Shown here piece by piece: positions 3,652-34,477 of a stretch of DNA of 37,439 bases. A program made the translations under genes and the position numbers. Below the pieces are notes generated by a model that worked only from the letters and a program-made list of their open reading frames with translations, searched no databases and had not been told where the DNA came from. The stretch comes from a virus (taxonomy: Duplodnaviria; Heunggongvirae; Uroviricota; Caudoviricetes): the IMG/VR virus record IMGVR_UViG_3300035688_000604. One strand, 5' to 3'. Position 1 is the first letter of the stretch. Every line of letters starts with the position of its first letter.

Positions 3652-4086
3652 TTAAACTTTGACTTTCTTCTCTCGTAATAATTTACCAGCAGTTGTTTTC
3701 TCTGCTGGTGTGAATTTGACTTTACCAGTTTTCTTGATATAATCTACCATTGTATGCATCTTTATTTTTTCCTTTGATATGCTATCCTTAGTCTTCCAAG
3801 AACCTCTGACTTCCATCTCAAAATCTGGCTCTAACTTCTTATTCCTTGCATCAACTTTTAAAACCCAAGTCCTCATATCATATTCACTCGCTATGACTTC
3901 TGCAAACATCTTGGCAGATTTTAGATTATCCCAAAGATAAATATATTCTGGTCGGCTCTTCGCAGAAACAGTCGGAATATATTCTGGTAATTTTTTCTTT
4001 GGTTTAAGACCTTCAACAAGAATACCAAGAGTTTTTAAAGCATCGGCTACATGATACATCTCTGCCTTGTTAATTTTATGAACCAT
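3652..4086 (-). CDS. MVH-start protein, putative ADP-ribosyltransferase fold (Tpt1/KptA/DUF952-like)
   Basis: Starts MVHK; MYH...ILVEGLKP...YIYLW...A...VLKVD...PD...W...I..EKI pattern matches Tpt1/KptA-like ART domains by eye. Confidence 0.5.
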   Translation of the reverse strand: MVHKINKAEMYHVADALKTLGILVEGLKPKKKLPEYIPTVSAKSRPEYIYLWDNLKSAKMFAEVIASEYDMRTWVLKVDARNKKLEPDFEMEVRGSWKTKDSISKEKIKMHTMVDYIKKTGKVKFTPAEKTTAGKLLREKKVKV

Positions 4087-30097: not shown

Positions 30098-30637
30098 TTA
30101 TTTTCTTTCAGGCATAGCCTTTGCTCTTGCTTCTGGAGACATTGACATCCATTCTTTTCTTGCAGGTTCTGTCATTGCAAGTTTTTCTGCTCCTGTCATC
30201 AGATTTTTCTTGACATATTCTCTGTCAGCCACAAACTTTGGCAACGCACCATCAGTATGTTTTCTGAAAACTGTCTGTGCTTGCAACATCTTGAAAACAC
30301 TTGGAGCACCGAATTCTTTTTCTGCTGAACGCAATGCTCTTCTTCTCTGTTCTTCTGAGAAATGAATTCCATATCCATGTTTCTTCAAAGCACCTTTTCT
30401 TGAAATTTTGATTATTTTCTTTCCTCTACCTAACAAACCAACATCAGGTCTGTGTTGCGTCTTTCCTTTGACACCCCATGTCATCTTTTTTCTCTTTGCT
30501 GTGAACACTTTACCTTTCCTGTGGATTTTCCATTCCATTGTCTTCGCTCTTGCAGTAGTCGGTTTTATGACTACCTTTAATTTAGGTCTCCCAAAACCAA
30601 GCGTAACGGCTTTGGTCTTCTTAACTTTGTGAACCAT
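30098..30637 (-). CDS. MVH-start very basic protein with a giant-virus-like C-terminal domain
   Basis: MVHKVKK at 30637; GALKKHGY...RRRAL..A.KEFG..SVFKML.A..VFRK...F.ADREYV recalls an NCLDV family of unknown function (DUF5771-like, from memory). Confidence 0.6.
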   Translation of the reverse strand: MVHKVKKTKAVTLGFGRPKLKVVIKPTTARAKTMEWKIHRKGKVFTAKRKKMTWGVKGKTQHRPDVGLLGRGKKIIKISRKGALKKHGYGIHFSEEQRRRALRSAEKEFGAPSVFKMLQAQTVFRKHTDGALPKFVADREYVKKNLMTGAEKLAMTEPARKEWMSMSPEARAKAMPERK

Positions 30638-30660
30638 CTTTCTCAACCATTAATTTTTAA

Positions 30661-31793: not shown

Positions 31794-32564
31794 TTATACC
31801 CACATTTTATTCACTATAGAGTCAATACAAGATTCGACATCTTCATAAATTTTATCTTCTGAAAAACGAAAAACCATAAAACCATTCTTTTTTAATTTTC
31901 TGTTTATTTTTCTATCATTTTTATAATTATATTTTTTATGCCAGTATGTTCCATCTGCATAAACACAAATATTAGGCTCTATAAAGATGTCTGGCTGAGT
32001 TATATTTAAAATTGGAATATGAGTCCTAAAAGTTATTTTTCTTTTTTTCAATTCTTTTTGCAATGCTTTCTCTATTAGTGTGTCTTTTAAAGGAATTTTT
32101 TGTTTCATCCGTGCTTTTCTTAATTTTTCTATTATTTCTCTACTCAAATTTTCTCTAAGATGGGCTATTTTATTTTTATCTTTACTTATTTTTGTATGAT
32201 GTTTACCGTAAAAGGGGTTATTTTTACCCTTTAAGTGTATTTCCATCCAATTAGCATAACATTCCATATTACAAAAATGATTTTTTTCATGTAATCGTTT
32301 GTATTTAATAACAAAGATTTCTTTCCCACAAAAAGAACATTTTAGTTTTTTCTTTGACCATCTGGGATGATTCTCACCATTCATAGGTAATCTTATGAGA
32401 TTATTACCACTATACCAACTTTCTCTTCTTGGAATACCAAAAGAAATCATACGAAGCCGTATACAAGTATAACTCACACCAAAAAATTTAGCAATTTCTT
32501 TAATTGTTAATTTTTTATTCCAATACAATATCCTGATTTTGTTATTATCTATAACTTTATCCAT
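31794..32564 (-). mobile_element. Putative homing endonuclease (HTH + Zn-finger + NUMOD3 + Vsr/DUF559-like nuclease)
   Basis: LTIKEIAKFFGVS (HTH), CSFCGK...FCNMEC, GKNNPFYGKHHT (NUMOD3), QPDIF...ADGTYWH...GFMVFRFSE. Confidence 0.75.
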
Positions 32565-32596: not shown

Positions 32597-33602
32597 TTAT
32601 GTTACAGATAATTCATCTTCTGCTTTTCCAGCAACTGTTTTTTTTTCTTTCTTCGCTTTTAATTTATCTAAATCAATCCTTCCTTTGATAACTGCACGGG
32701 CTACAGAAGCCATTTCTTTTATTAATTTTTCGGGGCTACCAAATGGCACTAATAATCTTGCTACAGACATTCTTTCATCGTTTGTTTTACACATCTGGAA
32801 ACTCTCATCCTCTGCTATTGTCTTTATTACATCGAGACGATTCATCTCTCTTTCACCAAATTCCCTTGTCCTTATCAATTCAATCTGTTTGTCCTTTTTG
32901 TATTCATACTGAGCCATGAACTCCTGACATTTACCATATCTTGGGCAGACATCCTGTATACATGTGATTATTGTTTCCCTTCCTTTGTAGACTGTTGGTT
33001 TTGCAAAGAGACCGCAATGAAAAAGCCAACCGATAGGTATGACTACAACACCCATAGGAACTTTCGAGACTGTTGAAACTGAAATATTGTAAAGTATGCA
33101 ACGAACTAACAAGTGCTCAAAGTTTTTACCAAAACATTCAAGACCAAGTTGGCTGTTTCTTCCAACAAATTCATGGGGAATGTGCAATTTGGAATTTTTC
33201 AACTCACAAATTTTGACACCAATAAGTATGAATTTGATTCTTGGCTATGATGTTTGACATATCCTCAAGGACTTGCATTTCCGTATAAGACCCTGCTCCC
33301 GAATGTGTTTCTGTTTGCTCATCAATCTGAAATGTCGAGCCAAAAGGTAACGTTGGTGTTTTTAATTTTTCAAGATATTCAATCTCATTCGCACAGACAT
33401 GCCACAAAGTAAAAGGAACTTGAGTTAAATTCGCAGTGAATTTAGACAGAGCAGTAACTACAGTGGATTTACCTGTTCGTGTTCCGCCTTTTACTTCCAT
33501 ACCAATGTTTTCTCTGTATCTTGTTTTGTAATCCAGAAACTCGAAAAAAAGTTTTGTCTTTGATTTCCCTATACATTCTGCGAAGGCAGTAGACTGAGAC
33601 AT
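32597..33602 (-). CDS. P-loop ATPase (putative viral packaging/assembly ATPase), split by a 34-nt intron; spliced product 323 aa
   Basis: Walker A GGTRTGKST and Walker B FQIDE in 33204-33602; continues in a shifted frame (32597-33202); removing 33180-33213 gives ...QIHTYWCHPHEFVGRN... Confidence 0.7.
33180..33213 (-). other. Bulge-helix-bulge (archaeal-type) intron, 34 nt
   Basis: GUGU-[CAA]-AAUUUG-loop15-CAAAUU-GCAC-[AUU]: 4-bp central helix, two 3-nt bulges, 6-bp inner stem, outer 9-bp CAAAUUCAU/AUGAAUUUG helix; cutting after nt 2 of each bulge restores the frame. Confidence 0.75.
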
Positions 33603-33772
33603 TTTTTCTTGGATTTGGTCTTTTTACATGATAGGAATGATATTGACACTCACCATCATCTTGTATTGGGTCTATGCTCAATAATCATATAATTGATTAT
33701 CAATCTACATGCCAATCAAGTTGATTTATGTTCAGATTTGCAAGTGTATTCGTAAAGAACGTCACATTATTT

Positions 33773-34477
33773 TCACCCCCTTATTATTTTATTAACTTCT
33801 TGCCTTACTTCTGTTGGTTTTTTTAATTCTTCATCAGTAAAGCGTATAACATTCCATCCTAATTTATTTAGGTATTTGGTTCGTAATAAATCTTTCTTTT
33901 TATCTGTATGCCATCTTTTACCATCAGTTTCTATTGCTAATTTAATCTCAGGTATAGCAAAATCTAACCAATACGGATAAACATTATAATTGAAGAAAAA
34001 ATCTTTCTTATATGCAAATCCTGAATCGGAAAGAATTCTAAACATAACTTTTTCCGTTGATTTTTTCATTCTATTTCTATTCTTCGATAAGATATGATTA
34101 GGATGTTTTTCTGGATGGATTTTATATAATTCTTTTTTTAATTTACTTTGAAGTGGTTGAGGATTCCCTTTTTTAGCAAGGCTCATTTTTGTTTTACTTT
34201 CTTTTTTATGAGTTTTACCATACATTGAATTATTTTTACCTTTATTTAAATTTTTAGTATGGCATAACCAATTTTTATATTTCTCCGAATTGGTTTTTTT
34301 AAAATTATCCATACCTATTTTTGTGCCTATTTTTATGTGTTCTATCATTTTTTTACGAATGTTTAAAATTTTCCATTGATTTAATGTTTGTTTCCTTTTA
34401 AGTTCTCTATATTTTTTACTTCTAACAATCTCTAAATGTTTCATTCTTATTTCTGGAATTTTCATTGGATTTACCAT
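33773..34477 (-). mobile_element. Putative homing endonuclease (NUMOD3 + DUF559/Vsr-like nuclease)
   Basis: GKNNSMYGKTHKKESKTKMS (NUMOD3); YWLDFA...KLAIETDGKRWH...GWNVIRFT. Confidence 0.75.

Follow-up and report, generated by a model that had tools for sequence, protein, structure and literature searches.

Protein-free bulge-helix-bulge (BHB) introns are textbook features of archaeal tRNA and rRNA, whereas inside coding sequences they are documented for essentially one cellular gene, cbf5. The cbf5 pre-mRNA of Desulfurococcales and Sulfolobales (Watanabe 2002; Yoshinari 2006; Yokobori 2009, PMC2738675) has one short intron of 16-44 bp at one site. Its borders lie between the second and third bulge residues, the BHB motif is often relaxed, and the relaxed motifs are cut by the hetero-oligomeric endonuclease. 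The intron interrupts a conserved or catalytic motif and shows gain and loss among relatives, and its splicing was shown by cDNA and in vitro. Several tiny BHB introns per gene, at varied and non-canonical positions, occur in pre-tRNAs of Thermoproteales and of Atabeyarchaeia/Freyarchaeia, lineages whose endonuclease accepts relaxed motifs (PMC11291895; Sugahara 2008 as cited there). In an archaeal virus, 12-bp inserts in protein genes of rudivirus SIRV1 variants were discussed as putative introns (Peng 2004, as cited in PMC2738675). A functional analogy, not homology, is offered by non-spliceosomal mRNA splicing joined by RtcB, namely HAC1/XBP1 (IRE1) and the 'SOS splicing' of transposons from animal mRNAs (PMC10630183, PMC12779559). 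There, other endonucleases in other organisms recognise an RNA shape in an mRNA and a tRNA ligase rejoins the exons; SOS splicing likewise rescues genes from inserted DNA by recognising paired repeats.

Here we examined a conserved P-loop ATPase gene in a stretch of 37,439 nucleotides (the window; IMG/VR record IMGVR_UViG_3300035688_000604) of an uncultured archaeal virus-like element. All features of the window described below are on the minus strand. A preliminary description had noted a BHB-shaped 34-nt insert at 33180-33213 in this gene and proposed that it is an intron, and the observation of the insert was confirmed. First, we observed that the frame break is real: ORF-A (33204-33602) ends in YWCQNL followed by a stop codon, and ORF-B (32597-33202) continues in the +1 frame. 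When the region 33160-33245 was folded with RNAfold, the described structure was obtained as both the minimum-energy (MFE) and the centroid fold. It comprises an outer helix CAAAUUCAU (33236-33228) / AUGAAUUUG (33174-33166), an internal loop, a central helix GUGU (33219-33216) / GCAC (33185-33182) with one G-U pair, bulges CAA (33215-33213) and AUU (33181-33179), and a 6-bp inner stem AAUUUG (33212-33207) / CAAAUU (33191-33186) closing a 15-nt loop. The energy was -20.8 kcal/mol with z = -2.65, and 1 of 200 shuffles folded as well. The whole structure spans 33166-33236. Notably, its distal 9-bp exon-exon helix is a perfect 9/9 in the two alleles with an intron here (the window and L005, one of the related metagenome loci, which we number with the prefix L) and imperfect in alleles without one.

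Cutting after the second nucleotide of each bulge would give the sequence WC-H-PHEFVGR, with the His codon rebuilt across the junction as CA^U (a caret marks the cut). The predicted junction is GGUGUCA^UCCCCAUG. Ten full-length homologs uninterrupted at this site read W-[CAVL]-H-PHEFVGR contiguously with no extra residues, and only the exact pair 33213/33180 restores the invariant His. The alternative outcome, in which homologs carry about 11 extra residues or occur as two proteins, was not observed, and the interpretation of the insert as an intron is thus supported.

However, the 323-aa gene model of the preliminary description was incomplete, since it missed two introns and 31 N-terminal residues. 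The whole gene (32597-33765) consists of four exons and three BHB introns, and the spliced coding sequence is 1065 nt, corresponding to 354 codons plus stop. The triply spliced product is one open frame and aligns without gaps to the uninterrupted homologs P0008, P0010, P0013, P0011 and P0003. The gene probably starts at the GTG at 33765-33763; this start is inferred. A Shine-Dalgarno-like GGGGGTGA (33773-33780) lies 7 nt upstream and overlaps the stop codon of the upstream endonuclease gene. Exon 1 (33705-33765, 61 nt) encodes (M)TFFTNTLANLNINQLDWHV plus the G of the Asp codon and matches the N-terminal extension of uninterrupted homologs (..W.VDPIQ..). Intron I1 (33672-33704, 33 nt) is in frame but contains three in-frame stop codons, and its BHB is AUGU-AG^A-UUGAUAAUCA...UGAUUAUUGA-GCAU-AG^A. 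Introns at the same site occur in L012, L013, L009, L004 and L001. An alternative register for I1 (33680-33712) was rejected because it gives W-S-I-D instead of the conserved W-H-V-D. Exon 2 (33660-33671) is a 12-nt micro-exon (A CCC AAU ACA AG) coding (D)PIQ(E). Intron I2 (33623-33659, 37 nt) shifts the frame, and its BHB is UACA-AG^A-UGAUGG...CUAUCA-UGUA-AA^A; a 36-nt intron sits at the same site in L003 with the same helices. Exon 3 (33214-33622, 409 nt) carries Walker A (GGTRTGKST) and Walker B (FQIDEQTE) and ends with HTYWC plus CA of the His codon. Intron I3 (33180-33213) is the 34-nt insert described above. Exon 4 (32597-33179, 583 nt including the stop codon at 32599-32597) starts with the U of the His codon followed by PHEFVGRNSQLGLE and encodes a Cys-rich and helical C-terminal part. 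The predicted spliced sequence is ...GGCAUGUAG^ACCCAAUACAAG^AAGACCAAAUCC... and ...UUGGUGUCA^UCCCCAUGAA... at the exon junctions. The fold of the I1/I2 region had z = -3.19, although I2's central helix is not formed in its MFE because UACA pairs in I1's outer helix.

A loose BHB pattern alone is common in this AT-rich DNA, at about 0.0039 per candidate pair of cut sites with about 555 candidates in the gene region. We used another approach that ignored structure and looked only for inserts whose removal joins homology-supported peptides. This search found just three well-supported inserts in the window gene (12-17 equivalent cut pairs each) and one weakly supported 23-nt event (3 pairs), and each of the three has a BHB at the required cut. 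Furthermore, a Logan assembly of another read set (L016, SRR11721899) was 100% identical over 2901 nt, including all three inserts. By contrast, a loose BHB scan of the whole window combined with ORF-joining logic was unspecific and gave 30 + 62 candidates against 37 + 33 in a reversed-sequence control, mostly at ordinary gene boundaries. Apart from the ATPase gene, no convincing further BHB-split gene was found, although genes without intact references cannot be judged.

Subsequently, related sequences were examined. Fifteen related metagenome loci (some duplicate contigs) carry 32 such inserts in 27 sequence versions at about 16 sites, 19-37 nt long. The catalogued ones obey the same cutting rule. 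Their lengths modulo 3 are distributed 7:10:10, and phases 0/1/2 are 9/16/2. The central helix is 4 bp in 25 of 27 versions and 3 bp plus one mismatch in 2, and all bulges are 3 nt. In the structure-blind test, every well-supported insert except two had a BHB at the required cut: L001 2480-2499 has a central helix with one mismatch and one G-U, and the 16-nt insert near 2173-2188 of L014 has no convincing BHB. Introns at the same site showed double changes that keep the pairs, namely UAAGU/ACUUA versus UAAGA/UCUUA in the Walker-A intron, CUAUCU/AGAUAG versus CCAUC/GAUGG in the NSQ^LGLE intron, and AUGAUU/AAUCAU versus GUGAU/AUCAC in the WIV^DP intron, although the counts are small and rest on no formal covariation statistic. 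Identical introns appeared in contigs from three samples (L002, L003, L004). The exons are under strong purifying selection, with dN/dS of 0.02-0.09 between intron-bearing genes, and L006 and L008 differ by dN 0.01 but carry their single intron at different sites. Loop similarity between sites did not exceed shuffled controls (top score 3.6 against a null median maximum of 3.5), and there is therefore no sequence evidence that introns at different sites are copies of one another. Frame breaks inside the inteins of L001 and L004 gave only weak, ambiguous BHB candidates; an RBS plus ATG at the break suggests two ORFs instead, that is, a split intein with an endonuclease fused to the C-intein. 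A scan of IMG/VR for relatives gave 95 pattern hits, none of which was confirmed, and a GTDB genome scan revealed no relative and hence no hint of the host.

Taken together, these findings suggest, with high though not complete confidence, that in the primary transcript each insert folds with its exon flanks into a 4-bp helix flanked by two 3-nt bulges on opposite strands, that the host's tRNA-splicing endonuclease (EndA family) cuts after the second nucleotide of each bulge, and that an RtcB-type ligase joins the exons and probably circularises the intron, resulting in an mRNA for a 354-aa P-loop ATPase. Cleavage and ligation, the enzymes and the host are inferred without RNA data; no transcript-derived, full-length protein of this clade appeared among 5.8 billion clusters, and no EndA or RtcB gene was found among the 27 window ORFs scanned against Pfam. 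The element thus very probably needs its host's tRNA-splicing enzymes to make this protein, and an archaeal host, or at least one with a tRNA-splicing endonuclease, is inferred. The strict hBHBh' form, with a helix of at least 2 bp on both outer sides of the bulges, is not present. The inner helix is 6-10 bp, but the helix next to the 3' bulge is a single G-C pair for I3, 0 bp for I2, and beyond a C-C mismatch for I1, and it is 0-1 bp in 17 of 27 intron versions. The motif is therefore the relaxed (HBh'-like) kind, as in most cbf5 introns, which the cbf5 literature assigns to hetero-oligomeric, broad-specificity endonucleases. No Rfam family matched at gathering score anywhere in the window, and sizes of 33-37 nt are far below any ribozyme intron. 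No tRNA genes were found in the window.

The preliminary description had also called the protein a morphogenesis ATPase and suggested that the intron possibly times its expression. The former is not shown, and the latter remains speculation. Pfam, PHROG and PDB sequence searches gave no match for the ATPase, and the AF2 model of homolog P0004 (pLDDT 68) matched only generic RecA/ASCE folds (RecA, Z 7.4; phi8 P4, Z 7.1) in Foldseek searches. Weak Zot/AAA leads on 12-65% of cluster members in the Atlas were not confirmed by HMM. Only a generic RecA/ASCE P-loop fold could be assigned. The introns are not a fixed regulatory device but a fast-turnover population that sits in the most conserved motifs of this one gene, which also attracts inteins and homing endonucleases.

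Among other explanations, removal at the RNA level by a virus-encoded or other host nuclease that recognises the hairpins, rather than by the host EndA/RtcB pathway, survives best but is unlikely. The host enzymes are unobserved, and the third nucleotide of the 5' bulge is A in 25 of 27 versions and the 5' bulge is AAA in 13 of 27, a bias that is not part of the textbook BHB definition and could reflect another enzyme's preference. However, this bias may simply reflect 29% GC, the geometry is exactly that of EndA substrates and suffices for cbf5 (PMC2738675), and no nuclease other than two DUF559-type endonucleases was found among the 27 window ORFs scanned. Translational skipping, either by a ribosome hop of the kind attributed to T4 gene 60 and the 'byps' of Magnusiomyces mitochondria or by a programmed +1 frameshift, is very unlikely. 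I3 indeed has a formal hop signature, in which a take-off UUG (33209-33207) is followed at once by UGA and a matching UUG (33187-33185) lies 22 nt on in the ORF-B frame, and I1 could be read as GAU (then UGA) landing on GAC; both sites sit in stem-loops. Nevertheless, the I3 hop would give WCQNL-HIPHEF, which has four extra residues and breaks the invariant W-x-H-P-H-E-F spacing, and a +1 frameshift would add about 11 residues that no homolog has. Across relatives, only 2 of 27 versions have matching take-off and landing codons, and 11 of 27 cannot be written as whole-codon gaps at all because the junction codon is assembled from both exons, whereas the BHB rule fits all 27. It is equally improbable that the gene is a decaying pseudogene with random indels that happen to form hairpins. 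The gene is broken as annotated and the neighbourhood is full of selfish elements (homing endonuclease genes, inteins, TnpB), but after removal of the BHB inserts the window, L005, L006 and L008 genes checked are complete open frames, no other stop or frameshift was found apart from the 16-nt insert in L014, the dN/dS values are low, and the inserts, with the exceptions given above, have the same 4-bp/3-nt geometry at the exact position needed. An assembly or sequencing artefact can be practically dismissed, since the identical Logan contig contains all three inserts and related inserts recur across many samples and assemblers.

In comparison with cbf5, the present gene belongs to a virus-like element, has three introns (up to five in relatives), shows turnover between near-identical genes and also carries inteins, and its splicing is only inferred. 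Unlike the pre-tRNA introns, these introns lie in an mRNA, with reading-frame consequences, although the archaea carrying such pre-tRNA introns are plausible hosts. The SIRV1 inserts come in multiples of 12 bp, keep the frame, were not shown to be BHB-shaped or spliced, and may simply be translated, whereas here 20 of 27 versions break the frame and all are BHB-shaped. We found introns of this type in coding sequences reported in print for only one cellular gene and no virus.

Free-standing homing-endonuclease-like genes (NUMOD3 + DUF559/Vsr-like) lie directly upstream (33773-34477) and directly downstream (31794-32564) of the ATPase gene. It is possible, though tentative, that the mini-introns are not just tolerated debris but a mobile or selected population in an arms race between selfish elements. 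They sit in the DNA that encodes the most conserved motifs, Walker A, Walker B, THAGAGSYTEMQ and WCHPHEFVGR, the sites that inteins and homing endonucleases of co-infecting relatives target. By splitting those sites at the DNA level, the introns would make the gene immune to cutting, while host tRNA splicing restores the mRNA. Alternatively, they spread together with the flanking endonucleases, as in collaborative homing. Either way, an essential gene of the element would be hostage to the host's tRNA-splicing enzymes.

If splicing is confirmed, archaeal mRNA splicing is not a one-gene curiosity, and viruses can depend on the host tRNA-splicing apparatus. Standard gene callers would systematically break such genes; every member of this clade is annotated as fragments, and even the 'intact' homolog P0004 hides an upstream exon. 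The question of how BHB introns are gained would become testable, because this family offers many recent, independent gain and loss events in a single 1-kb gene. The introns would also be a cheap host marker, in that the host should be an archaeon with a broad-specificity endonuclease.

We first examined the disruption of the ATPase gene on the minus strand. An ORF of 132 aa (33602-33204) ends ...HTYWCQNL*, and a 201-aa ORF (33202-32597) continues in the +1 frame. When the region 33245-33160 was folded with RNAfold, the structure given in the preliminary description was obtained as both the minimum-energy and the centroid fold. This structure consists of a 9-bp distal exon-exon helix (CAAAUUCAU/AUGAAUUUG), an internal loop, a 4-bp helix (GUGU/GCAC) with one G-U pair, 3-nt bulges CAA and AUU, each located 3' of its strand of the central helix as in pre-tRNA, and a 6-bp inner stem with a 15-nt loop. 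The energy was -20.8 kcal/mol (z = -2.65), and 1 of 200 dinucleotide shuffles folded as well. Cutting after the second nucleotide of each bulge removes 34 nt (33213-33180, hereafter I3) and joins ...UGG UGU CA^U CCC CAU GAA..., where the caret marks the junction, which reads W-C-H-P-H-E-F.

Subsequently, 5.8 billion protein clusters were searched with the read-through translation, and 19 relatives were found. In the alignment, ten full-length homologs (50-58% identical) read W-[C/A/V/L]-H-P-H-E-F-V-G-R with no residue between, whereas the read-through of the window has an 11-residue gap-forming insert at that spot. Notably, the His is invariant and can only be produced by the exact cut pair that the BHB rule predicts; one nucleotide to the left gives Leu, and one to the right gives Gln. 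Hence, homologs neither carry the extra residues nor exist as two proteins, either of which the preliminary description had named as evidence against the intron.

We also observed that several homologs have an N-terminal extension (...W-x-V-D-P-I-Q-E/D-D-x-I-x-E-K-M-S...) upstream of the Met used by the ORF caller. In the window this extension is present but broken twice on the minus strand (33623-33704), by two further BHB introns that were absent from the preliminary description. I1 (33704-33672; 33 nt) is in frame, contains in-frame stops and has the form AUGU-AG^A-[10-bp stem]-GCAU-AG^A. I2 (33659-33623; 37 nt) has the form UACA-AG^A-[6-bp stem]-UGUA-AA^A, and a 12-nt micro-exon lies between the two. 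When GTG at 33765, 7 nt after GGGGGTGA, was taken as the start, the four exons gave one open frame of 354 codons. Its product aligned without gaps through all three junctions to uninterrupted ORFs from other metagenomes (P0008, P0010, P0013, P0011, and P0003). The I1/I2 region folded with z = -3.19. In that fold the outer helix of I1 (CUUGAUUGG/CCAAU-ACAAG) uses the micro-exon and competes with the central helix of I2, which may mean ordered splicing, although this is speculation. The loops of I3 (33206-33201), I2 (33652-33647), and an intron in the related locus L003 (1265-1270) begin G^UGAGU (GTGAGT), which resembles the eukaryotic 5' splice-site consensus but is probably a coincidence in AT-rich sequence.

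Next, we examined 15 related loci (L001-L015), some of which are duplicate contigs. Inspection of L005 by eye showed five inserts in the same gene, each a textbook BHB whose removal restores the conserved protein, and L004 and L001 showed five more. We then used an automated test, in which a BHB candidate was accepted only if the peptides on both sides abut in an intact reference. This test gave 32 occurrences in 27 distinct sequence versions at about 16 sites. The inserts are 19-37 nt long, with a length mod 3 (0:1:2) of 7:10:10, phases 0/1/2 of 9/16/2, and a GC content of 29%. The central helix is 4 bp in 25 of 27 versions and has one mismatch in 2, the inner stem is 4-10 bp, the outer helix is 0-1 bp in 17 of 27, and the 5' bulge is AAA in 13 of 27. 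The sites cluster in the conserved motifs, namely W-x-V^DPIQ, DPIQ^ED, KGG^TRTGK (Walker A), DEQTE^TH (Walker B), four sites within THAGAGSYTEMQ, ICA^KEQ, QIH^TVW, WxH^P, PHE^FVGR, NSQ^LGLE, and TPE^KLI. Loci without inserts in the tested part (L007 and L011) gave no accepted candidate. Even the locus (L009) of the 'intact' homolog P0004 hides an upstream exon and a 22-nt BHB intron (WIV^DPIQ; L009:3447-3468), and gene callers start this homolog at the internal Met.

As a structure-blind control, we listed all 12-63-nt deletions that would join 6-residue matches to the references. All well-supported events but two carry a BHB at a permitted cut, while the background density of the loose BHB pattern used here is 0.0039 per cut pair. 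Of the two exceptions, L001 2480-2499 has BHB geometry but a weak central helix, whereas a 16-nt frame-breaking insert between EDIQQ and ICAKEQ in L014 (near 2173-2188) has no convincing BHB and remains unexplained. No disruption other than BHB inserts, inteins, and this L014 insert was observed.

Introns at the same site keep the helices through double changes: UAAGU/ACUUA versus UAAGA/UCUUA in the Walker-A intron, CUAUCU/AGAUAG versus CCAUC/GAUGG in the NSQ^LGLE intron, and AUGAUU/AAUCAU versus GUGAU/AUCAC in the WIV^DP intron. I3 of the window and the L005 intron at the same codon have unrelated inner stems but the same architecture, with cuts offset by 1 nt. The spliced coding sequences are under strong purifying selection (dN/dS 0.02-0.09).

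Other explanations of the inserts were also considered. For ribosome hopping, I3 does show UUG-UGA...UUG; however, the product would have four extra residues, only 2 of 27 versions have matching take-off and landing codons, and 11 cannot be written as whole-codon gaps. A +1 frameshift adds 11 residues that no homolog has, and cannot pass the in-frame stops of I1 or of the 21-nt introns. No Rfam family matched. Gene decay is contradicted by the selection data. Assembly error is contradicted by a 100% identical Logan contig from SRR11721899, and by identical introns in contigs from three samples (L002-L004).

The protein has Walker A (GGTRTGKST) and Walker B (IDEQTE) motifs but matched no Pfam, PHROG, or PDB sequence family. 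An AlphaFold model of the homolog P0004 (pLDDT 68) matched only generic RecA/ASCE P-loop folds (RecA, Z 7.4; phi8 P4, Z 7.1), and the Atlas neighbours are viral hypotheticals with weak Zot/AAA leads. Accordingly, the function of morphogenesis ATPase assigned in the preliminary description is possible but not shown.

The gene is flanked on both sides by paralogous free-standing NUMOD3 + DUF559/Vsr-like endonuclease genes (31794-32564 and 33773-34477, minus strand), and the stop of the upstream one overlaps the ribosome-binding site of the ATPase gene. In relatives, the same gene carries inteins at Walker A, at Walker B, and at W^CH, which is 4-5 nt from the I3 site, and has HNH endonuclease or TnpB genes next to it. 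The coding region of the inteins at L012:2113-3539, L004:2433-3835, and L001:2535-3946 is two overlapping ORFs, the first of N-extein + N-intein and the second of RBS/ATG + DUF559 endonuclease + C-intein + C-extein, which looks like split inteins with the endonuclease fused to the C-half; that of L012, a 104.7-kb contig, sits at W^CH. In L013 a TnpB (OrfB_IS605/Cas12f-like) gene (119-1300) lies directly upstream of an ATPase gene with three BHB introns. The rest of the window encodes beta-helix/LamG surface proteins and many small ORFs. A 182-aa protein (30098-30646, minus strand) carries DUF5771 (E = 1e-8), and the same domain is conserved at the same relative position in L002-L004. Many genes, e.g. 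near 4086, 4271, 16323, 20480, and 29212, begin with the same nucleotide block, ATGGTTCAY-AAR (M-V-H-K). No EndA or RtcB was found among the 27 window ORFs scanned, and there are no tRNA genes in the window.

The closest known case is the cbf5 pre-mRNA intron of Crenarchaeota, which is 16-44 bp, is often a relaxed BHB, has borders between bulge residues 2 and 3, and is cut by the hetero-oligomeric endonuclease (PMC2738675). The same paper cites unproven 12-bp 'putative introns' in SIRV1. In full-text literature searches, no report of BHB introns in viral protein-coding genes was found. Wetland Asgard archaea with introns in 92-95% of their tRNA genes show that intron-rich hosts exist in comparable habitats (PMC11291895). 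The preliminary observation is confirmed and extended, and the intron reading, although it lacks RNA proof, is strongly supported by the comparative evidence. Within the family, L006 and L008 differ by dN 0.01 and dS 0.46, yet have their single intron at different sites, so gain and loss is fast.
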